A stretch of DNA of 22,406 nt from the IMG/VR virus record IMGVR_UViG_2537562020_000008. The stretch is one strand, 5' to 3'. A program made the translations under genes and the position numbers. Under the pieces are notes generated by a model, which saw nothing but the letters and a program-made list of their open reading frames with translations, was not told the DNA's origin and ran no database searches. Positions 1-16,635 of this stretch are shown piece after piece; within the stretch, counting starts at the first letter, position 1, and each line of letters starts with the position of its first letter. The stretch comes from a virus. Its lineage: Duplodnaviria > Heunggongvirae > Uroviricota > Caudoviricetes.

Positions 1-179
1 CCGAACTGCATACGCTGCAGTTTCGCAACCAGCGCCTTCAGCCGGTTGATTTCGGAAGCATAAGCCGCCACCCGCTGTGAGAGCAGGCGGTTGTATTCGG
101 CCATCTGGCGGATGGTGTCCTGTTGCGTCTGCAACAGTGCCCGCAGGCGGGCATTCTCATGAGCAAGTGAGGTGTCCAT
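1..179 (-). CDS. IS66-family transposase (third ORF), N-terminal fragment only; gene runs off the window
   Basis: Reverse-complement translation from ATG at 179 gives MDTSLAHENARLRALLQTQQDTIRQMAEYNRLLSQRVAAYASEINRLKALVAKLQRMQFG, which matches my recollection of IS66 transposase N-termini (leucine-zipper-like). Confidence 0.75.
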   Translation of the reverse strand, partial: MDTSLAHENARLRALLQTQQDTIRQMAEYNRLLSQRVAAYASEINRLKALVAKLQRMQF

Positions 180-198
180 ATCCTCACTTTACAACGGG

Positions 199-546
199 TT
201 ATATGCGGATGCCAGCGCGTTCCGTTCGTTTCGGGTGCTTCCAGTTGATACCTTCAAGAAGCATGGATAACTGAGCCGGAGTAAGGTGAACCTTTCCATC
301 GCGGGTGACCGGCCAGACGAAGCGGCCCCGCTCCAGGCGTTTGGTGAAGAGGCACAGTCCGTCACTGTCAGCCCACAACACTTTTATCTGGTCACCCCGG
401 CGTCCGCGGAAGATGAACAGGTGTCCGGAGAACGGGTCATCCTTCAGGACGTTCTGAACTTTTGATGCCAGGCCGTTAAAGCCATTTCGCATATCGGTGA
501 TACCTGCAACCAGCCAGATACGCGAACCTGCAGGGAGAGATATCAT
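199..546 (-). CDS. IS66-family Orf2 (TnpB-like accessory protein)
   Basis: 115-aa ORF; the segment GITDMRNGFNGLASKVQNVLKDDPFSGHLFIFRGRRGDQIKVLWADSDGLCLFTKRLERGRFVWP is typical of IS66 Orf2; ATGA overlap with upstream orf1. Confidence 0.85.
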   Translation of the reverse strand: MISLPAGSRIWLVAGITDMRNGFNGLASKVQNVLKDDPFSGHLFIFRGRRGDQIKVLWADSDGLCLFTKRLERGRFVWPVTRDGKVHLTPAQLSMLLEGINWKHPKRTERAGIRI

Positions 547-1223
547 CAGTGGCTGCTCCCTTTTATTTCGCGGATAAGTGTCTGTAATAACGCCGGCGTC
601 AGTTTACCTTTAAGCCTGAGAGTTCCGGCCGGCAGAACCAGCTCACAACACAGACTGTCGGACGGTGTATTTATCTGCTCTGGTTCCTGTGCGGGGGCCG
701 GGATTTTATTATCCGGCTCCGGCGTTAACGTCACGGGAAGCAGTGCCGGCATATTTTTTCCGGAAGGCAGCAGGCCACCTTTCCGGTATTGATGGCGCCA
801 GTTGAAGAGCAGGTTATCGTTGATTCCGTTTTCCCGGGCGATCTGCGCCACACAGGCTCCGGGCTGCAGTGACTGCTCCACTAAGGCGATTTTAAACTCA
901 TAAGGGAAGTTGGGCCGCCGGGGACGTTTTTTTACCACGGGGGCTTCGGATATAACGGTGCTTTCAGGACGTACGACTGGTATCGTGGAAAATTGTCCGT
1001 AAAGGCAGGCATCAAGTTCCTGCTCCGACATGCCTGCGGGCAAAGGCCACGAAAGGCCAGCTCTCCGAAAGCGCACGAACATACTACAAACTGTTGATTT
1101 TGGTACACCCAGGCGACGCCCGGCCACAACCCGGGGTAAATGTTCTTCAAAGTGAAGACGTAAAGCTTCAGTGATCCAGGTCCGGTGTTTCATACGATAG
1201 TGTCCATTAAAAATGATGGACAT
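546..1223 (-). CDS. IS66-family Orf1 (TnpA-like accessory protein, HTH-containing)
   Basis: 225-aa ORF directly upstream of, and overlapping, IS66 Orf2; position and order fit IS66 architecture. True start may be the internal Met (MKHRTW...). Confidence 0.7.
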   Translation of the reverse strand: MSIIFNGHYRMKHRTWITEALRLHFEEHLPRVVAGRRLGVPKSTVCSMFVRFRRAGLSWPLPAGMSEQELDACLYGQFSTIPVVRPESTVISEAPVVKKRPRRPNFPYEFKIALVEQSLQPGACVAQIARENGINDNLLFNWRHQYRKGGLLPSGKNMPALLPVTLTPEPDNKIPAPAQEPEQINTPSDSLCCELVLPAGTLRLKGKLTPALLQTLIREIKGSSH

Positions 1224-2527: not shown

Positions 2528-3021
2528 TAAGCCCCCACGTAATTCCCTGACAGATACCACTCTTCACCCGATGCAGCGCGCTTGCTGCTTTTCCGTAAGC
2601 ACCGCTCACGACGCGTCAGAAAATTGTTTCGTTCTGGCTGGGAGTGGCTTTCACGGAATGCCGCCATCCACACGGTTGCAGCACGACGGTATAAGCCCCT
2701 GGACTCCAGTTCTTCCGCCTGGCGGGTCAGGCACAAAATCACACGGGGATCGTTAGTGCCGACATAGAAATTGCGCACAGGTCTGGTTTCACGAACTGGT
2801 TGTGGTTCCGGTTCCTGCGCTCTCTCAGTCAGGCGCGGGAAATGTCTGCGTGTATCTCCTTCACAACGGTGAGCCACACGCCCACTCTGACGTAACTTGC
2901 TTGCTGACTGCAGAACGCGCTGCCGTGAGTAACCGGCAAAAGCATCCGCAATATCTCCGGAAGTACAGCCCGGATGGGCTTCAATGAATTTCTGAACGTC
3001 ATTCAAAAGACTCATGCTCAC
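2527..3021 (-). CDS. Prophage regulatory protein: N-terminal winged-helix-like region and C-terminal PerC-like motif (family uncertain)
   Basis: 164 aa; C-terminal AEELESRGLYRRAATVWMAAF recalls the PerC/Pch signature from memory. GTGA overlap with the upstream replication gene. Confidence 0.45.
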   Translation of the reverse strand: MSMSLLNDVQKFIEAHPGCTSGDIADAFAGYSRQRVLQSASKLRQSGRVAHRCEGDTRRHFPRLTERAQEPEPQPVRETRPVRNFYVGTNDPRVILCLTRQAEELESRGLYRRAATVWMAAFRESHSQPERNNFLTRRERCLRKSSKRAASGEEWYLSGNYVGA

Positions 3022-3959
3022 CCCCTGAATCCTGCCGGGATCTGGCTGTAGTCCACGTTGTCGTAACTGGCTTTGAAGTACGGGTCTTCGCGTTTTTCGG
3101 TGTACGTGCTGACGGACGGCGATAAGCGCAGGGAAAGCTCATCCCATTTTTCCCGCAGCTTCGACGGGCTGAGCACGTTACGGCACCAGAACGGATCGCG
3201 ACTGACGCGGCTGTACATCTCGCAGATTTGTTTATGAGTACGACCATCCTGCACACACATCAGGCGAATTTCGTTTGCCCAGGCTGTCCAGTTCGGTTCT
3301 TTGGGACGAACCACCTCGCCGTCACATTCGGCGGCCTGCTCGTACAGGGCGATGATTTTTTTCCAGAGCCACTGTGCGCAGGTCAAATCATCCTGCGTTC
3401 CCCACTGGCGCTTTTTAGGGCTGAATACAACCGCATCAGGATGGCGAGTTAAAAACTCCTGTTCAGCCGTCTGCGTGTCCGGTTGCGAAGCGTCCGGACG
3501 AGAAGTTTTTTTATCTGACGGATCATGTTTTGATTTTACTGACGGATCCCCGCCAGATTCTGACGGGTGAAAACCCGCTTTTTTGCCAGATTTCGACGCA
3601 TCAAATTTTGACGGGTCAGATTTTGATGCGTCAGATTTTGACGGGTCAGAATCTGACAGTTGAGAAAATGCCGCTGCCTGAAGCTTCGCAACGTTAAGCT
3701 GATAAACATTCGACGCATTGCGGTTACCCTGGCGACGCGCCTTACGCGTTAACCAGCCTTCTGCTTCCAGCCGTGCGATAGCCGTTCTGACGGTACTCAT
3801 CCCCGCGCCAATCTGACGGGCAATGGTTTCAATTGATGGCCAGCACACCCCTTCGTCATTACTGAAATCAGCCAGGCGGGCCATAATTGCCACGCTGGAT
3901 AATTTCATGCCTGACGCTGCGCAACCATCCCATACATAGCCGGTTAATTTAGTGCTCAT
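3018..3959 (-). CDS. Phage replication initiation protein (lambda O-like organiser: N-terminal HTH, repeat-rich linker, C-terminal domain)
   Basis: 313 aa; N-terminal HTH (WPSIETIARQIGAGMSTVRTAIARLEAEGWLTR); central repeats SDSDPSKSDASKSDPSKFDASKS encoded by the iteron DNA; sits downstream of cro and the CII-like gene as in lambdoid phages. Confidence 0.75.
   Translation of the reverse strand: MSTKLTGYVWDGCAASGMKLSSVAIMARLADFSNDEGVCWPSIETIARQIGAGMSTVRTAIARLEAEGWLTRKARRQGNRNASNVYQLNVAKLQAAAFSQLSDSDPSKSDASKSDPSKFDASKSGKKAGFHPSESGGDPSVKSKHDPSDKKTSRPDASQPDTQTAEQEFLTRHPDAVVFSPKKRQWGTQDDLTCAQWLWKKIIALYEQAAECDGEVVRPKEPNWTAWANEIRLMCVQDGRTHKQICEMYSRVSRDPFWCRNVLSPSKLREKWDELSLRLSPSVSTYTEKREDPYFKASYDNVDYSQIPAGFRG
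3513..3664. repeat. Iteron array (about 8 copies of a ~15-bp unit, core TGACGG/TGATGCG) inside the replication gene; putative phage origin
   Basis: Seen directly: attttgacgggtcag / attttgatgcgtcag / attttgacgggtcag / aatctgacagttgag in tandem at 3605..3664, with more degenerate copies at 3513..3604 and an A/T-rich stretch at about 3500..3512. Confidence 0.7.
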
Positions 3960-3968
3960 GACCGACCT

Positions 3969-4307
3969 CTATTTCCCTGAATTTACGACGAAACTGTTCG
4001 AGCGGACTGAAGCACTCATGCTCATAGCCTTCGCGGAGGTAGATAACCCGTTGTGTTTCCGGTTCCCAACGAATGACTCTGACGGGCACTCCGTAGTGAT
4101 CTTTGAACCAGCGGTTAACTTGTCGCAAAGGACTGTCTCCTTCTGCCGGTTGAAATCACCCACAGCCCACTCTGCAAAGCTGTGGGTTACAATTTCCCTG
4201 TCACCTGGTACATTTACTGCATAGCAATACTCCACCTTCGCTTTTCCACCCGGTACAGGAAGCGCAATCAGTTGCGAGCGACGGTAGTGTGTTGTTAAAC
4301 TGTTCAT
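3969..4307 (-). CDS. Hypothetical prophage protein (112 aa)
   Basis: ATGA overlap with the upstream CII-like gene supports translation. An alternative frame with a good RBS and TTG start near 4127 also exists, so the gene model is uncertain. Confidence 0.4.
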
Positions 4308-4855
4308 GCGTTAGTTTCTCCACAGTCACGACACGCCACGGCGCCCGGAGCTGCACACTCGCGGGCGTCATTACTTTCTGAAATGCAAAAGATTTTGTAG
4401 ACCAGTGCTGCATGCTCCTGCAGCTTCGAAATTGAGAGATATAGCTCGTCGTTAATTGCAGTTTTCTCATGCGGTTCCACTACACCGTCTTCGATTGCTG
4501 AACGAATCTGTTTTGAATAACTGCCGATCTGTTCAATGACCTCCAGCAGGCGTTGGTTGATATCGGCGTTGTCCACATCCTCGACATCAGGAAGAGACAC
4601 AAAGACGCCATTTGCAGACTGCGCCACAGCGTCAGCAATGAAGTGAGTTCCACCAGCACGTTGCAAAATCATTGCCCATCCCAGCGGGAAAATCTGATCG
4701 CCATCGGCACGAAGGCGGTTAAATAATGCGTTCTCTGTTACATCCAGCCAGTCAGCAGCTTCAGCGTACCCCCCCGGCAACGCTGCGATAGTTTTTCTGA
4801 CAGCTTTCACGTACCACTCAGGCTGTTTTTCTACTTTCCAGTGATGCTTACCCAC
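4304..4855 (-). CDS. Phage regulatory protein, CII-like (CP76 family) - tentative
   Basis: 183 aa immediately downstream of cro in the rightward operon; overall pattern ([35 protein letters not shown]...) resembles CP76-type CII regulators as I recall them. Confidence 0.5.
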
Positions 4856-5108
4856 GGTTCACCTCCTGTTCCTGTGGTTTAAACCCATTCTGGTTTTGGC
4901 TAGATTGAAAACGTGCCGGATAAAGAATCTGCATTTCGCTGACTTCACCCTTAAAAAAATTGGCTAAACGTTCTGCAAGCTCGATAGATGGAATCTGCTC
5001 CAGCCTCTCAATACGACTCAACGTCGCTGGATTGACTTGAACACCCGCAGCAACATGCTGCAAAGTGAAACCATGCGCCTTACGCACATTTCGTAATGGT
5101 GATTGCAT
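4848..5108 (-). CDS. cro: Cro-like HTH (XRE-family) repressor
   Basis: 86 aa; HTH motif GFTLQHVAAGVQVNPATLSRIERLEQIPSIELAERLANFF; divergent from the cI-like gene across an operator-rich 97-bp spacer. Confidence 0.8.
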   Translation of the reverse strand: MQSPLRNVRKAHGFTLQHVAAGVQVNPATLSRIERLEQIPSIELAERLANFFKGEVSEMQILYPARFQSSQNQNGFKPQEQEVNRG

Positions 5109-5205
5109 ACGCCCTCCAAATATTGCGCGTTATGCATGTTATTTCACGCAATTATTTTGCGCAAGTTGATTTGCTTATCACGCAATAAAGAAATGTAATA
5201 AACGC
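5109..5205. promoter_or_regulatory. Immunity-region operator/promoter region (OR-like) between cro and cI
   Basis: Seen directly: ttgcgcgttatgcat (5123..5137), cacgcaattattttgcg (5144..5160) and ttgcttatcacgcaa (5171..5185), sharing TTGC/GCAA half-sites. Confidence 0.7.
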
Positions 5206-5898
5206 ATGAACATAGGAAACCGAGTCAGACAACTTCGCCAAGCGAAGAACATGAAAATCGCCGATCTCGCTGAAGCGATAGGAGTAGATGCGGCGAACAT
5301 CTCGCGCTTAGAAACGGGTAAGCAAAAACAATTTACCGAACAAACACTGAGTAATATTGCCAAGAGCTTAGGTGTTGATATTGCTGATCTCTTTACCTCT
5401 GCCCACAAAAGTAATACTGTATATAAAAACAGTAATAATGAGGATGTTGCGCAGGTGAAGGATGTGTTCCGTATTGAAATGCTGGATATCAGTGCCAGTG
5501 CGGGAAATGGCCTTATCCAGGGCGGTGATGTCATTGATGTGATTCATGCCATCGAATACAGAACTGATAATGCTGTATCAATGTTCGGCGGACGACCAGC
5601 CAATCACATCAAAGTTATCAACGTTCGTGGGGACAGTATGTGTCCAACCATTGAGCCCGGAGATCTCATCTTCGTTGATGTCAGCATCAATCAGTTTGAT
5701 GGTGATGGTATATATGTCTTTGGTTTTGATGACAAAATATACGTTAAAAGACTTCAAATGATTCCTGACAAACTGCTGGTGATTTCTGATAACCAGATTT
5801 ACCGTGAATGGGGAATTACTAGCGAAAACGAACACCGATTCATGGTCTTTGGAAAGGTCTTAATCAGTCAGTCGCAAACCCTTAAGAGACATAATTAA
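5206..5898 (+). CDS. cI: cI-like prophage repressor (N-terminal XRE HTH + C-terminal LexA-like S24 peptidase domain)
   Basis: 230 aa; HTH (MKIADLAEAIGVDAANISRLETGK) and C-terminal S24-type region (VRGDSMCPTIEPGDLIFVD ... IYVKRL). Confidence 0.9.
   Translation: MNIGNRVRQLRQAKNMKIADLAEAIGVDAANISRLETGKQKQFTEQTLSNIAKSLGVDIADLFTSAHKSNTVYKNSNNEDVAQVKDVFRIEMLDISASAGNGLIQGGDVIDVIHAIEYRTDNAVSMFGGRPANHIKVINVRGDSMCPTIEPGDLIFVDVSINQFDGDGIYVFGFDDKIYVKRLQMIPDKLLVISDNQIYREWGITSENEHRFMVFGKVLISQSQTLKRHN
5415..5434. promoter_or_regulatory. Near-consensus SOS (LexA) box embedded in the cI coding sequence
   Basis: Seen directly: TACTGTATATAAAAACAGTA versus consensus TACTGTATATATATACAGTA; CTGT-N8-ACAG core intact. 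Confidence 0.5.
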
Positions 5899-5917
5899 CC
5901 TCAATATCCCATCCATC

Positions 5918-5942
5918 GGCCACCGAAAGGTGGCTTTTTATT
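5918..5942 (+). terminator. Rho-independent terminator downstream of cI
   Basis: GGCCACC-gaaa-GGTGGC hairpin followed by TTTTTATT, 20 nt after the cI stop. Confidence 0.75.
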
Positions 5943-5952
5943 ACCTATAAAT

Positions 5953-5989
5953 TTGCATATCTCGCAAATATCACTTGCATGTCTCGCAA
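5953..5989. promoter_or_regulatory. OL-like operator pair (two 15-bp TTGC-N7-GCAA sites, 22 bp apart)
   Basis: Seen directly: ttgcatatctcgcaa (5953..5967) and ttgcatgtctcgcaa (5975..5989), same half-sites as the cro/cI intergenic sites. Confidence 0.55.
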
Positions 5990-6175
5990 TTTAATTTTAT
6001 CTTTTGTTCCAGACCAACTACAGGATTACAACAAAATCTGGTTGCAACACGGTGCATGTGTCGTAAGCAGTCAGTAAATGTCAAAAACGAACAGGCAGGA
6101 CGCCCACGAAGTAGCCGCCTGGGGCATATGAAGTCCAGGATGATTCGTTGAGTCATGTTGTGCCACTAGGCACTC

Positions 6176-6472
6176 ATGTTAAAGCAGGTGTATGAAATGA
6201 AAGTCCAGATTTTAAACAATAACTGTGAAGTCGTTTGGTCATACGACATAGCCGCCCCTGTAGATCAGAGCGGCGATAGCTGGACCAATGGGAAACATCA
6301 GATTATGGCTGGAGTTGTGTTCTCTTTACGCCGTGCTTTGGAACAGGCTGAAGTATTTCCATCAGACCCTGAATGGAAATGGCCTTTTTCTATTTGTCCA
6401 AATTCGGAGAGCACATTTCAGAAAATTGGTCAGAAAGTCGCACTCGAAGAGCATCAGCCAACTGTTTCCTGA
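6176..6472 (+). CDS. Hypothetical moron protein (possible start at 6196, MKVQILNN...)
   Basis: ORF downstream of the OL-like sites at the position occupied by rexAB/sieB in lambdoid phages. Its 3' end overlaps the convergent ORF by ~80 bp, so one of the two may be mis-called. Confidence 0.35.
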   Translation: MLKQVYEMKVQILNNNCEVVWSYDIAAPVDQSGDSWTNGKHQIMAGVVFSLRRALEQAEVFPSDPEWKWPFSICPNSESTFQKIGQKVALEEHQPTVS

Positions 6473-6635
6473 TTTTTTCAGGTAACTCGTCGGCATCGCA
6501 GAAACAACAACGCTCGATCATGTTGAAAGCCGATTCGTAGAACTGTTTCTGCTGAGTGTCGCTGAGACAGGAAAAGAGCGACGTTACGATGATTTTATTA
6601 ATTGCATTATCAAGTTCTTTTTCATCAAAAGTCAT
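6390..6635 (-). CDS. Hypothetical small Cys-containing protein (81 aa)
   Basis: Good RBS (aaaaggaaaatcaaATG); contains CCFC; no family recognised. Confidence 0.45.
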   Translation of the reverse strand: MTFDEKELDNAINKIIVTSLFSCLSDTQQKQFYESAFNMIERCCFCDADELPEKIRKQLADALRVRLSDQFSEMCSPNLDK

Positions 6636-7072
6636 TTGATTTTCCTTTTATGTATACGGGCTTAAAAGGATACCACCGAGCCTGAAGTGGTGAAAAGACA
6701 GGCACATAACAGCTAAGTATTTTCAACCAAAGAGAATCCTTAGCGTTGTGGTGAATGCGGCTCAGCGCACGCGGGTTAAGGTTGAGGCTGACAGTCGACC
6801 TTCTGTGGATACCCACCCGTCTGGTGTGCAACCTTCGCCAGGCACCGGGAGGCACCCGGCACCACAACTTTATGCTGTGTGTAGTCCTGGCGGTACCAGT
6901 TTGTACCCTTGCTTCCGGCTGGTACCGTCCTTTTTACAAAACAGAGAAGAGCATCACCGGACGACGGGCTCATAACCCAATCCATCCGGGCGGCTGCCAC
7001 CGCAGGTGTTCTTCTCTGTTTTGTGGAGAAACTAATCGGCCTTGCAGGGTCGATATGATGAGGAGCAGCAAA

Positions 7073-7447
7073 ATGGCTAGCGAACGCAGTACTGATGTAC
7101 AGGCATTTATCGGGGAGCTGGACGGCGGCGTATTTGAAACCAAAATCGGCGCAGTTCTCAGTGAAGTCGCTTCCGGTGTGATGAACAGGAGGGACAGCTG
7201 ATAGAAACAGAAGCCACTGGAGCACCTCAAAAACACCATCATACACTAAATCAGTAAGTTGGCAGCATCACCCAAACTCTCATATGTTCGCCCGACTAAC
7301 CGCGGGAAAATTTCCGAAGAAGACACCACCGAAACGCCGATGTATGTCAATCGCGGTGGTCGCCTGACTATTCTGCAGGAAGACCAGGGACAATTACTGA
7401 CTCTTGCCGGTGAACCTGACGGAAAACTCCGCGCAGCAGGTCATTAA
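7073..7447 (+). pseudogene. Prophage gene split by a ~90-bp IS1-end remnant (5' part 7073..7182, 3' part 7273..7447)
   Basis: RBS gaggagcagcaaaATG at 7073; 5' fragment MASERSTDVQAFIGELDGGVFETKIGAVLSEVASGV stops inside the IS1-derived segment; 3' fragment KLSYVRPTNRGKISEED...GKLRAAGH resumes in the same frame after it. Confidence 0.4.
7183..7272 (-). mobile_element. IS1 left-end remnant (IRL plus ~65 bp; the rest of IS1 absent)
   Basis: Reverse complement reads GGTGATGCTGCCAACTTACTGATTTAGTGTATGATGGTGTTTTTGAGGTGCTCCAGTGGCTTCTGTTTCTATCAGCTGTCCCTCCTGTTCA, matching the IS1 terminus and start of insA as I recall it; similarity ends near 7183. Confidence 0.8.
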
Positions 7448-7512
7448 TATCGTTCTTAATTAACTGATTATTTATCTCATCACTGAATATCTTTATATAG
7501 TGAGGACTTATT

Positions 7513-8337
7513 ATGTCTCAGAACTTAGACGCAACCGCAATTAATCAAATCCATGCCCTTATTTCTGCTCAGGGTGTTAATGAAATTATCAGTAAGATTG
7601 GTGCCGATGCTGTGGCATTGCCTGAGAATTTCCGCATTCATGATCTGGAAAAATTTAATTTAAATCGCTTCCGTTTCCGTGGTGCGCTTTCCACTGCCAG
7701 CATCGATGACTTTACCCGTTATTCTAAAGATCTTGCAGATGAAGGCACCCGCTGCTTTATCGATGCTGATAATATGCGAGCCGTCAGTGTGCTTAACCTG
7801 GGTACTATTGATGAACCAGGTCACGCAGATAACACCGCCACTCTCAAACTGAAAAAGACAGCACCGTTCTCTGCCCTGTTGTCTGTTAACGGCGAGCGTA
7901 ACTCCCAGAAGTCACTGGCAGAATGGATTGAAGACTGGGCCGACTACCTTGTGGGCTTTGATGCTAATGGTGACGCCATTCAGGCAACAAAAGCGGCTGC
8001 GGCGGTCCGTAAAATCACGATTGAAGCAAACCAGACCGCTGATTTTGAAGACAATGACTTCAGCGGCAAACGCTCTCTGATGGAGTCTGTCGAAGCGAAG
8101 ACCAAAGACATTATGCCAGTGGCATTTGAATTTAAATGCATTCCGTTTGAAGGTCTGAAAGAACGTCCGTTTAAATTACGCCTCAGCATTATCACTGGCG
8201 ATCGTCCGGTACTGGTTCTGCGCATTATTCAGCTGGAGGCGGTGCAGGAAGAAATGGCTAACGAATTTCGTGATCTGCTTGTTGAGAAATTCAAGGACAG
8301 CAAAGTAGAAACCTTTATTGGTACTTTCACCGCCTGA
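7513..8337 (+). CDS. yfdQ: YfdQ-like prophage protein (DUF2303 family)
   Basis: 274 aa, the length of the CPS-53 prophage protein YfdQ, and followed by YfdR/S/T-like genes in the same order. Confidence 0.7.
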
Positions 8338-9660: not shown

Positions 9661-10010
9661 TGGAGCCATACAGCCTCACACTCGATGAGGCCTGTCATTT
9701 TCTCAAGATATCCAGACCGACTGCCATTAACTGGATACGCACAGGGCGTCTTCAGGCAACACGCAAAGATCCCACTAAGAATAAATCTCCTTACCTCACA
9801 ACACGACAAGCCTGCATTGCGGCTCTTCAGTCTCCGCTGCATACTGTCCAGGTGAGCGCGGGTGATGGCATAACAGAGGAAAGAAAATGTCACTCTTCCG
9901 CAGAGGTGAAATATGGTACGCCAGTTTCACATTGCCGAACGGTAAAAGATTTAAACAGTCTCTTGGAACAAAGGACAAAAGGCAGGCGACAGAACTCCAT
10001 GACAAGCTAA
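9660..10010 (+). CDS. xis: Excisionase (P22 Xis-like HTH)
   Basis: [40 protein letters not shown]... matches the P22-type Xis pattern; start shares a nucleotide with the yfdT stop (TAATG); 3' end overlaps the int start. Confidence 0.75.
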
Positions 10011-11050
10011 AGGCTGAAGCATGGCGGGTCAGCAAACTTGGTGAAATACCTGATATAACGTTCGAGGAAGCGTGTGTCAGGTGGCTTGAAGAGAAAGCAC
10101 ATAAAAAATCACTGGACGATGACAAAAGCCGGATCGGATTCTGGCTTCAACATTTCGCAGGAATGCAACTAAGAGACATTACTGAATCAAAAATTTATTC
10201 AGCAATGCAGAAAATGACGAACCGGCGTCATGAGGAAAACTGGAAACTCAGGGCAGAAGCATGCAGAAAAAAAGGGAAACCTGTTCCAGAATACACGCCA
10301 AAACCAGCGTCCGTTGCAACGAAGGCTACGCATCTTTCATTTATAAAGGCCCTACTAAGAGCCGCAGAGCGTGAATGGAAAATGCTGGATAAGGCACCAA
10401 TTATTAAAGTGCCTCAACCAAAGAATAAACGGATCCGCTGGCTGGAGCCCCATGAAGCACAAAGGCTGATTGATGAATGTCCGGAGCCATTAAAGTCTGT
10501 TGTTGAATTTGCACTGGCAACAGGCTTAAGACGCTCGAACATCATCAACCTTGAATGGCAACAAATAGATATGCAGCGCCGGGTGGCATGGATAAACCCG
10601 GAAGAGAGTAAATCAAACCGCGCAATCGGCGTTGCGCTGAATGATACTGCATGTCGCGTTTTGAAAAAACAAATCGGGAATCATCACCGTTGGGTATTTG
10701 TGTACAAGGAAAGCTGTACCAAACCAGACGGAACGAAAGCGCCAACAGTAAGGAAGATGCGGTATGACGCAAACACAGCCTGGAAAGCAGCGCTGAGACG
10801 GGCTGGTATTGATGATTTCAGATTTCACGACTTGAGACACACCTGGGCAAGTTGGCTGGTTCAAGCCGGAGTCCCGTTGTCAGTGTTACAGGAAATGGGA
10901 GGCTGGGAGTCTATCGAAATGGTTCGTCGATATGCTCACCTTGCACCTAATCACCTTACCGAACACGCACGGCAAATAGACTCGATCCTGAACCCATCGG
11001 TCCCAAATTCGTCCCAGTCAAAAAATAAGGAAGGTACTAATGATGTGTAA
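9887..11050 (+). CDS. int: Tyrosine integrase, P22-type
   Basis: 387 aa; [47 protein letters not shown]... and C-terminal [41 protein letters not shown] (catalytic R..HxxR..Y); abuts a tRNA-Thr 3' fragment. Confidence 0.9.
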
Positions 11051-13411: not shown

Positions 13412-13624
13412 CTAGTGAGCTATTTTATAGTCCCTTAATGCATTTTTAAGTAACTCCGTTTGCTCATCAGCATCATCATAATTATAAATTCCCGTAGCAG
13501 AATAATACTCTTCGATGCATAGAATATTTATCAATGGTTCACAAATCTCTTTAATAAAATCCTTGTTGTTATCGGCAAAAATAATTTTTATTCCTTCCAA
13601 AACAAAGCTATTATAATCAGCCAT
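13412..13624 (-). CDS. Hypothetical small acidic protein (70 aa)
   Basis: Strong RBS (AGGAGGTGGATAATG); acidic composition; no family recognised. Confidence 0.55.
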   Translation of the reverse strand: MADYNSFVLEGIKIIFADNNKDFIKEICEPLINILCIEEYYSATGIYNYDDADEQTELLKNALRDYKIAH

Positions 13625-13693
13625 TATCCACCTCCTTACAGGTGTTTAGTGGAAGCGTCAGTTAACGTTACCGCGCTAACTGACGCGCCTAAA

Positions 13694-16517: not shown

Positions 16518-16584
16518 ACAGGCGGTAGCCGATCAGCCTCGCAGAGCAGGACTCCGTTGAGCAGCTCAGCTGCGAATAAGGGAA

Positions 16585-16635
16585 GGTAAAGTAGAAGCAC
16601 CGTTTACGGTGGGCCTACTTTACATATCCTGCCCT
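16585..16635. other. oriT-like site: 9-bp inverted repeat around an inner palindrome, followed by a MOBP-type nick motif ATCCTGC
   Basis: Seen directly: GTAAAGTAG-aagcaccgtttacggtgggc-CTACTTTAC then acatATCCTGCcc at 16626..16632; lies ~70 bp upstream of mobC. Confidence 0.4.

Follow-up and report, generated by a model that had tools for sequence, protein, structure and literature searches.

Structured RNA modules border a variable accessory-gene slot in the proposed early-left operon of an SfV/e14-type lambdoid prophage

The virus record IMGVR_UViG_2537562020_000008 comprises 22,406 nt of DNA (the window, by which we mean this whole stretch), and its gene order, together with domain searches, shows that a lambdoid prophage has its immunity and early-left region here. 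We analyzed the segment to the right of the repressor gene cI, at positions 5944–7447, which an earlier reading of the bare sequence (the original prediction) had described as a moron locus with two small open reading frames (ORFs), a GC-rich segment and a broken gene. The segment holds a structured leader, a convergent gene pair, a block of further predicted RNA modules and a pseudogene, which are arranged as follows.

5206–5898, plus strand: cI repressor gene, with helix-turn-helix (HTH) and Peptidase_S24 domains.
5918–5940, plus strand: intrinsic terminator of cI, GGCCACC-GAAA-GGTGGC followed by a T run (terminator scan).
5953–5967 and 5975–5989: OL operator pair, TTGCATATCTCGCAA and TTGCATGTCTCGCAA, matches to TTGC-N7-GCAA.
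5975–6003, plus strand: putative PL promoter, with −35 TTGCAT, a 17-nt spacer and −10 TATCTT, as read from the sequence.
6084–6152, plus strand: structured leader RNA of 69 nt at the start of the PL transcript.
6197–6472, plus strand: first PL-driven gene, 91 aa, starting MKVQILNN; SfV orf33, PHROG 3195.
6390–6635, minus strand: convergent gene, 81 aa; PHROG 3311, conserved RCC[F/Y]C motif.
6667–6711, no strand assigned: short conserved module with a hairpin at 6672–6691, just 5′ of the minus-strand cargo gene.
6723–6938, plus strand: STnc100/PasD-like RNA module, core junction domain 6743–6875; annotated as ymfH in e14.
6889–6938, plus strand: intrinsic terminator of this module, a 13-bp stem followed by UCCUUUUUAC; −23.8 kcal/mol, z-score −3.7.
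6938–7022, plus strand: hairpin 2, conserved, 85 nt, its lower stem of 18 bp; after it come GGAGAAAC, a small hairpin and the next gene's ribosome-binding site.
7073–7447, plus strand: yfdP pseudogene (SfV orf32 homologue), from DNA alignment to SfV and 720R4 and from yfdP in related records.
7182–7272, minus strand: IS1 terminal remnant, one inverted-repeat end, ending at 7272, with its left junction in the microhomology TGAACA.

Exact TTGC-N7-GCAA sites occur three times in the whole window, at 5171 on the OR side and at 5953 and 5975. As judged from the sequence, PL must overlap 5953–6003, and the putative promoter at 5975–6003 scores under the threshold of the consensus promoter scan. Since the OL operators directly follow the cI terminator, everything from about position 6000 rightwards, the small ORFs included, lies downstream of PL. 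The original prediction had placed the slot next to cI, at a position equivalent to that of rexAB/sieB and in front of a PL-driven antiterminator. With operators (5953–5989) that adjoin the cI terminator, this is not the rexAB position between cI and PL. No gene for a protein antiterminator was found, the ORFs scanned between cI and yfdR giving no Pfam match to N. The same arrangement is found in other phages and prophages, with 96.5% identity to SfV over 6083–7500 and 99% identity to SfII on the left part of 5900–7500. At least 80% of 5900–7500 is present in 260 of 5,426 complete Escherichia coli genomes, and in E. coli FORC_031 the same prophage adjoins tRNA-Thr and proA.

The leader was first revealed by an alignment of the window with e14, in which two conserved nucleotide blocks surround unrelated coding cargo. 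It is composed of a stem P1 (AACGAA/TTCGTT), an invariant 23-mer AGGCAGGACGCCCACGAAGTAGC, a hairpin P2 (CCTGG/CCAGG) with the loop GGCATATGAAGT, and the junction GGATGA. The element lies about 100 nt past the repressor gene in SfV, e14, ST64B, Yersinia YeP1 and Pectobacterium ZF40, with a TTGACA-17-(C/T)A(T/C)A(A/T)T promoter immediately upstream in SfV, e14, YeP1 and ZF40, while in mEp237 the same leader precedes kil, the first gene after it. The exact 23-mer is present in at least 120 IMG/VR contigs, and the leader also occurs in prophages of about 15 Enterobacterales genera. Among the matches listed, the complete element is found in 52 of the 120 species genomes with the 18-mer core, and the organisms shown for it are all Enterobacterales but one, Chryseobacterium. 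The record concerned (L203, titled Chryseobacterium sp. 18061) has a complete enterobacterial-type leader in a Bacteroidota assembly, which is likely to reflect contamination or a mislabelled contig.

Covariation in the leader was measured on 97 distinct sequences, with shuffles and slid helices as controls. The P1 and P2 helices are paired in 94.5% of cells, and the covariation score of 0.742 compares with 0.19 for the shuffles and at most 0.16 for the slid controls; double-sided changes are seen in 10 of the 11 pairs, and P1 exists in three compensating versions (CGAA/TTCG, CCACC/GGTGG and GTCATC/GATGAC). The U-G pairs are compatible with the plus strand only, which identifies the leader as RNA on the PL transcript. 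The covariance model finds a single copy in the window (92 bits), and neither this model nor a sequence search recovers a second one on the PR side. No match to the leader was obtained in Rfam release 15, either at gathering thresholds on the whole window or with E up to 10 on 5850–7550, and it is undescribed in the full-text paper library that we searched (searches on ymfH, SfV antitermination and the motif sequences). This covarying RNA, absent from both resources, is the most interesting item at the locus, and the original prediction had not flagged it. Extra matches to the leader profile occur elsewhere: about 11 loci with the CCACC stem (L085, L080, L075, L098, L123, L094, L095, L099, L046, L089 and L069) have a weak second match of about 14 bits on the opposite strand, at a constant distance of about 1.38 kb downstream, and locus L102 has a second copy on the same strand 690 nt downstream (E 1e-8).

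What lies between the leader and the modules to its right was surveyed in 50 related loci, with the leader as one anchor and the STnc100-like or hairpin-2 modules as the other. The interval between these anchors is occupied by at least 25 unrelated inserts (270–1,400 nt), and the slot is empty in ST64B and two other loci. This many cassettes between common anchors supports a moron-like accessory hotspot, and the description of the segment as a moron locus is borne out to that extent. Many of the inserts share a design in which a short plus-strand ORF faces a minus-strand ORF of 63–173 aa. It recurs in cassettes that are unrelated to one another (e14 YmfJ/YmfI, the SfIV type, L017, L021, L073 and YeP1), which suggests that the paired design has a function. 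The module at 6667–6711 sits 5′ of the minus gene in many cassettes and is common, on its own, to many otherwise unrelated loci and to Klebsiella phages; on the minus strand it consists of a hairpin (−6.8 kcal/mol) and then a U-rich tail, a terminator-like site. The scanned cargo proteins carry no known defence annotation in Pfam, NCBIfam or PADLOC; one is BssS-like, and some of the plus-strand ORFs have a ClpX-type zinc finger. The YmfJ/YmfI pair of e14 and the pair of YeP1 were considered as homologues of the window pair and rejected as unrelated proteins. At the minus-gene position of three different cassettes (L017, L091 and L134) there is a family of 150–166 aa (phrog_6315) with a hydrophobic stretch, which by eye resembles a protein with two transmembrane (TM) segments and has SieB-like size and topology; these membrane-like proteins were tried as SieB candidates and set aside, having no Pfam or PADLOC match.

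In the window the slot holds two small ORFs that converge and overlap at their 3′ ends by 83 nt, as originally described. The longer plus-strand frame (6176–6472, 98 aa) is present with an in-frame ATG at 6176; the conserved start is the ATG at 6197, which yields 91 aa, as the sequence upstream of 6197 differs in 720R4 and most database copies begin there, and ATG 6176 is probably not used. For the minus-strand gene, the strong ribosome-binding site and the CCFC motif were both recovered, the former as AAGGA about 7 nt upstream of the ATG and the latter as RCCFC at residues 42–46 of the 81-aa protein. Homologues of this protein in four genera share 31 invariant residues, and C43, C44 and C46 are invariant in them. 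An AlphaFold2 prediction gives a three-helix bundle (pLDDT 83). Neither ORF resembles N, Rex or SieB, in agreement with the original prediction, and no known family was found for either in Pfam, NCBIfam or PADLOC, the only assignments being PHROG 3195 and PHROG 3311, both of unknown function. For the 81-aa protein, exhaustive HMMER searches (19 representative clusters among 1.8 billion proteins) returned no relative of known function, and the predicted model had no Foldseek match under E = 0.8 in PDB and BFVD and no PDB sequence match. The plus-strand protein likewise has no PDB sequence match, and its model was too poor for a fold search.

Most database copies of the pair are nearly identical. 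A truly diverged cassette, found at locus L012, where the immunity context is of Rac type, and in genomes of Klebsiella, Salmonella and Yersinia, retains both ORFs at about 60% amino-acid identity. We measured nonsynonymous and synonymous change (pN and pS) between the window cassette and the L012 (Klebsiella-type) cassette, with the overlap treated apart. In their non-overlapping parts, both frames combine saturated synonymous sites with little amino-acid change (pN 0.18 and pS 0.86 for the plus ORF; pN 0.19 and pS 0.83 for the minus ORF). The original prediction had allowed that a lack of purifying selection on the small ORFs would speak against it; with pN at about 0.18 and pS at about 0.85, such selection is present on both. 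Inside the overlap the minus frame remains constrained (omega 0.36), whereas the plus frame shows no constraint there (omega about 1.1), and its tail carries frameshifts in L010 and L011; residues 1–66, roughly, make up the functional core of the plus-strand protein. Two proteins taken for diverged plus-ORF homologues (P0043 and P0050) proved to be frameshift variants in which the minus ORF is intact. The low pN and high pS in both frames, together with the joint retention of the two ORFs, indicate that they travel together, and by this comparison of sequences both are real genes under purifying selection that are co-evolving.

To the right of the pair, G+C content rises from 0.35–0.37 over 6500–6724 to 0.55–0.58 over 6725–7024. 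The GC-rich structured segment is thus present as predicted; its assignment to the moron was mistaken, since the block is a divergent structured small RNA (sRNA) module of STnc100/PasD type. The Rfam model RF02076 aligns to 6723–6938 over its full length (model positions 1–206) with 39.5 bits and E 1.1e-6, below the gathering score of 47. The ST64B and e14 copies are likewise below this threshold; those of L115 and L024 score 52–114 bits, and the module of the window aligns with these above-threshold copies. Pairing is kept through double-sided changes in 11 of the 21 predicted pairs, with the outer helix and one long-range helix covarying, and the variants of the outer helix (UGUGGUG, UGCGGUG, UACGGUG and CAUGGUG) each have a matching partner. 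The features that define STnc100, a CCGGG-AGGCA-CCCGG hairpin, a closing helix and a GGUGAAU junction, are present with support from covariation, as is a Rho-independent terminator at the 3′ end. Other Rfam results over 5850–7550 with E up to 10 were noise only (for example DicF and ftsZ-DE). On the strength of these sequence features we argue that the module extends the STnc100/PasD family, as a predicted RNA, to a divergent early-operon subtype. An IMG/VR contig, L024, carries three STnc100-type modules (175–740, minus strand, and 10134–10383, plus strand), two above threshold and in tandem on one strand, and a third, of the divergent subtype, after the leader.

Hairpin 2 is the most widely shared piece of the GC-rich block. 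Its predicted fold is strong (−41.9 kcal/mol, z-score −4.9), compensatory changes are found in ST64B, L125 and L129, and the 18-bp stem suggests a site for RNase III; Rfam has no match to it. It occurs also in L006, L125, L129, L117 and L134, with GACGGGCTCATAACCCAATCCA invariant within it, and whichever gene follows, yfdP or another, has its ribosome-binding site after the hairpin.

Taken together, these results lead us to regard the stretch, with moderate confidence, as the promoter-proximal end of an early-left (PL) operon, belonging to a lambdoid prophage of the SfV/SfII/e14/CPS-53 type, where conserved RNA modules flank a hypervariable slot for accessory genes, and to propose the following scheme as part of that reading. 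In a lysogen, cI would shut PL off, and transcription from the conserved module to the right of the 81-aa gene would then express this gene as the accessory function that the slot provides in the lysogen, possibly an exclusion-like one. Upon induction or infection PL would fire, with the 91-aa protein as its first product, and convergent transcription would silence the minus-strand gene, which is antisense to PL, by antisense and collision effects; the 91-aa protein may thus be a cognate partner or an antagonist of the 81-aa protein. The leader RNA would act in cis, in the manner of nutL or putL, allowing polymerase to pass the STnc100-type terminator and reach xis and int, and the long hairpin would serve as an RNase III-like processing site that separates the sRNA from the downstream mRNA. 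We infer an antitermination role for the leader only from its position, that of a nutL/putL site with a strong terminator between PL and xis/int, and from the failure to find N.

Several observations weigh against this scheme. The fold of the leader is thermodynamically unremarkable (z-score −1.2), and neither BLAST nor a covariance model relates the leader to HK022 put. A crude count of terminators downstream of the leader at 86 loci, with more matches on the control strand, carries no weight either way. Consensus scans and reading of the sequence revealed no convincing sigma-70 promoter for either the minus-strand gene or the STnc100-like RNA, and the hairpin directly upstream of the minus-strand gene is terminator-like on that strand, a poor fit to a simple promoter model. 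Profile and PDB sequence searches with both proteins, and a fold search with the 81-aa protein, revealed no resemblance to a family of defence, exclusion, toxin or antitoxin proteins, and the model of the plus-strand protein is of low confidence (pLDDT 54), beyond the reach of Foldseek.

It is quite possible, if short of probable, that the leader is not an antiterminator and instead tunes early-left expression by affecting RNA stability or processing, by binding a host RNA chaperone, or as a switch that senses a ligand or protein. An invariant 23-nt core inside covarying stems has the look of aptamer-like or protein-binding RNAs, and the lack of resemblance to put and of a second copy on the PR side of the window agrees with such a role. 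Against it, the sequence past P1 varies by cassette, so that no consistent terminator or platform for sequestering a ribosome-binding site follows the leader, and the location of the leader immediately downstream of PL, in phages that yielded no N, matches that of nutL and putL. We tentatively advance the stronger proposal that the leader may be a new class of cis-acting RNA for early-left transcription in lambdoid prophages in which no N is found, most likely a processive antiterminator analogous but unrelated to put, and that the leader, the STnc100-like module and hairpin 2 jointly border a recombination hotspot of swapped cognate pairs, one gene lysogen-expressed and the other PL-driven.

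A further explanation, closest to the original prediction, takes the whole interval as a moron at the rexAB/sieB position whose small ORFs give a lysogen defence or superinfection exclusion. The hypervariability of the slot and the purifying selection on both ORFs would fit this, as would a minus-strand gene lying antisense to PL in the manner of sieB, and other cassettes hold the two-TM-like family of 150–166 aa and further orphan proteins typical of such hotspots. We nevertheless find it doubtful. The locus follows PL instead of separating it from cI, so a PL-driven plus ORF would not be lysogen-expressed; the tested cassette proteins have no PADLOC, Pfam or NCBIfam match except for one of the BssS family and one with a ClpX zinc finger; and the GC-rich block and hairpin are conserved RNA modules, not cargo.

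Without any part in phage exclusion, the pair could instead regulate itself as an early module of kil or toxin-antidote type, in which the 91-aa protein acts on the host and is restrained by the 81-aa protein or by its antisense transcript. The occurrence of kil as the first gene after the same leader in mEp237 speaks for this, as do the inheritance of the two genes together and the built-in antisense control that a convergent overlap would provide; however, there is no similarity to Kil, toxin or antitoxin families, and the C-terminal tail of the plus-strand protein tolerates frameshifts, and we consider such a module unlikely. That the small ORFs are chance frames in a non-coding leader sequence is very improbable: it would fit the tiny size of their families (19–28 clusters in billions of proteins), the near identity of most copies and the existence of frameshifted plus-ORF variants, but the saturated synonymous sites and low amino-acid change in both frames outside the overlap contradict it, as do the minus-ORF homologues in four genera with their invariant residues and the confident fold prediction for the 81-aa protein.

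We give just as little credence to the GC-rich block encoding a protein, YmfH, as annotated in the K-12 prophage e14, rather than RNA: RefSeq annotates ymfH over the homologous e14 sequence, which is 90.7% identical to 6723–6938, and an open frame of 148 aa (6755–7201) exists in the window, but single-nucleotide indels separate the two within the frame, the FORC_031 copy is called frameshifted by PGAP, the block splits into sub-modules that occur independently, its helices covary with above-threshold STnc100 RNAs, and chance open frames are expected at 56–58% G+C. From this comparison, K-12 ymfH is probably a misannotated RNA module. The e14 gene (L004, 3582–3893) overlies both the STnc100-like module and hairpin 2, and the e14 copy may be decayed, given a deletion in the otherwise invariant CCGGGAGGCACCCGG hairpin.

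Returning to the scheme that we favor, the operon beyond hairpin 2 begins with yfdP, which is broken by one end of IS1 at about 7182–7272, in accordance with the predicted gene split by an IS1 fragment. About 76 nt of yfdP have been replaced by about 85–90 nt of the IS1 end, which is 96–100% identical to the ends of IS1A and IS1B (thousands of E. coli records). The element is not complete, with about 90 nt of one end only, and is a remnant rather than a mobile copy. The yfdP frame (YfdP family PF27127, about 120 aa) is not intact; N-terminal and C-terminal pieces of 42 aa and 62 aa remain, and neither fragment alone has a Pfam match. The neighboring genes in the window are as follows.

3018–3959, minus strand: O-like replication gene.
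4304–4855, minus strand: CII/YmfL-like gene.
4848–5108, minus strand: cro.
Right of cI: yfdQ (DUF2303), the HD-domain gene yfdR, xis, and int (9887–11050).

On the PR side, cro and the CII/YmfL-like gene overlap by 8 nt (4848–4855), which leaves no intergenic room there for a putR- or nutR-like element. Beyond the prophage integrase, two matches exceed the Rfam gathering score, traJ-II RNA (93 bits, 16535–16634, minus strand) and the antitoxin RNA PtaRNA1 (48.6 bits, 13618–13690, plus strand), and these suggest plasmid-like DNA, or DNA like that of an integrative and conjugative element (ICE), next to the prophage. To the right of the immunity region of ST64B (L006, 242–430, minus strand), a C4 antisense RNA (79.7 bits) lies beside isrK (64.3 bits); their sequences point to a c4-type control module, like that of P1 and P7, in a phage that carries the leader.

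How polymerase passes from PL to xis and int in lambdoid phages without N, such as SfV, SfII, ST64B, e14 and others, is unaddressed in the small part of the literature covered here. The leader, with its invariant 23-nt core, is a concrete and mutable candidate for this passage. The slot, for its part, holds dozens of alternative small gene pairs across Enterobacterales, and is a place to look for new exclusion, defence and host-modifying functions and for their phage-encoded partners.

Among known systems, the leader is comparable to putL of HK022, in that both are structured RNAs, of about 70 nt in the case of the leader, with which the PL transcript opens, and terminators lie farther along the operon. 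Like put, it lies just downstream of an early promoter (one directly precedes it in SfV, e14, YeP1 and ZF40) in phages in which no N-like ORF was found, and antitermination in HK022 needs no dedicated protein factor (PMC9378689). The two differ in other respects: putL has BLAST matches in HK022, HK75, phiEt88 and HK639-like phages and in none of the SfV or e14 type, and the leader covariance model gives chance-level scores on the HK022 locus. In architecture, the leader has one closing stem, a 27-nt unpaired region around the 23-mer and one hairpin, whereas put has two long stems, and the single leader of the window contrasts with the putL and putR of HK022. Rfam holds no put family (the HK022 locus itself has no Rfam match), so the missing Rfam match says nothing on put, and put was tested separately by BLAST and covariance model, both with negative results. 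The STnc100-like core had also been considered as put-like, for its resemblance in GGATGA and CCGGGAG, and this was dropped on comparison with the HK022 put sequences.

The GC-rich module shares with STnc100/PasD (RF02076; bioRxiv 10.64898/2026.05.13.724894) the outer helix UUGUGGUG/CACCACAA, the GGUGAAU junction, the invariant CACCGGGAGGCACCCGGCACC hairpin, the 3′ intrinsic terminator and a location in lambdoid prophages. It differs in its internal hairpins and in lying in the early-left operon, PasD and the copies in Stx phages being found after Q or stx. Members of this family are prophage sRNAs that are multicopy in enterohaemorrhagic E. coli (EHEC), transcribed in lysogens and recovered with Hfq (bioRxiv 10.64898/2026.05.13.724894; PMC5331693); the transcription of paralogues in EHEC lysogens includes one confirmed by Northern blot (PMC5331693), and the expression data of the family concern EHEC and enteropathogenic E. 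coli (EPEC) paralogues only.

In its overall plan the locus corresponds to e14 ymfJ-ymfI-ymfH and SfV orf33-orf32, which share the order of cI, leader, plus ORF facing minus ORF, STnc100-like block and downstream genes. The leader and GC-rich block of e14 are homologous to those of the window; its YmfJ/YmfI are not related to the window pair, and it is without yfdPQR. The SfV annotation omits the minus ORF, and its yfdP equivalent is broken by IS1 in the window. In lambda and P22, sieB is oriented antisense to PL, and the minus-strand gene resembles sieB and lambda rexAB as a gene near the immunity region, set against PL transcription, that could be lysogen-expressed and silenced by PL antisense transcription. 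The proposed antagonism between the minus and plus genes and the silencing by PL likewise recall sieB/esc/sas of P22. There is no homology with these genes, the minus ORF having no Pfam match, and the 81-aa protein is modelled as a three-helix bundle, has no hydrophobic segment by reading of the sequence, and is not a membrane protein; unlike rexAB, its gene is downstream of PL. As the first PL-driven gene, the plus ORF sits where N does in lambda. Morons and the accessory hotspots of prophages have borders of conserved sequence and many alternative small genes of unknown function. The slot of the window is like them in its conserved borders, its alternative small genes and the empty sites in some phages, and is distinguished by borders that are structured RNA modules and by cargo that usually follows one fixed convergent two-gene design.

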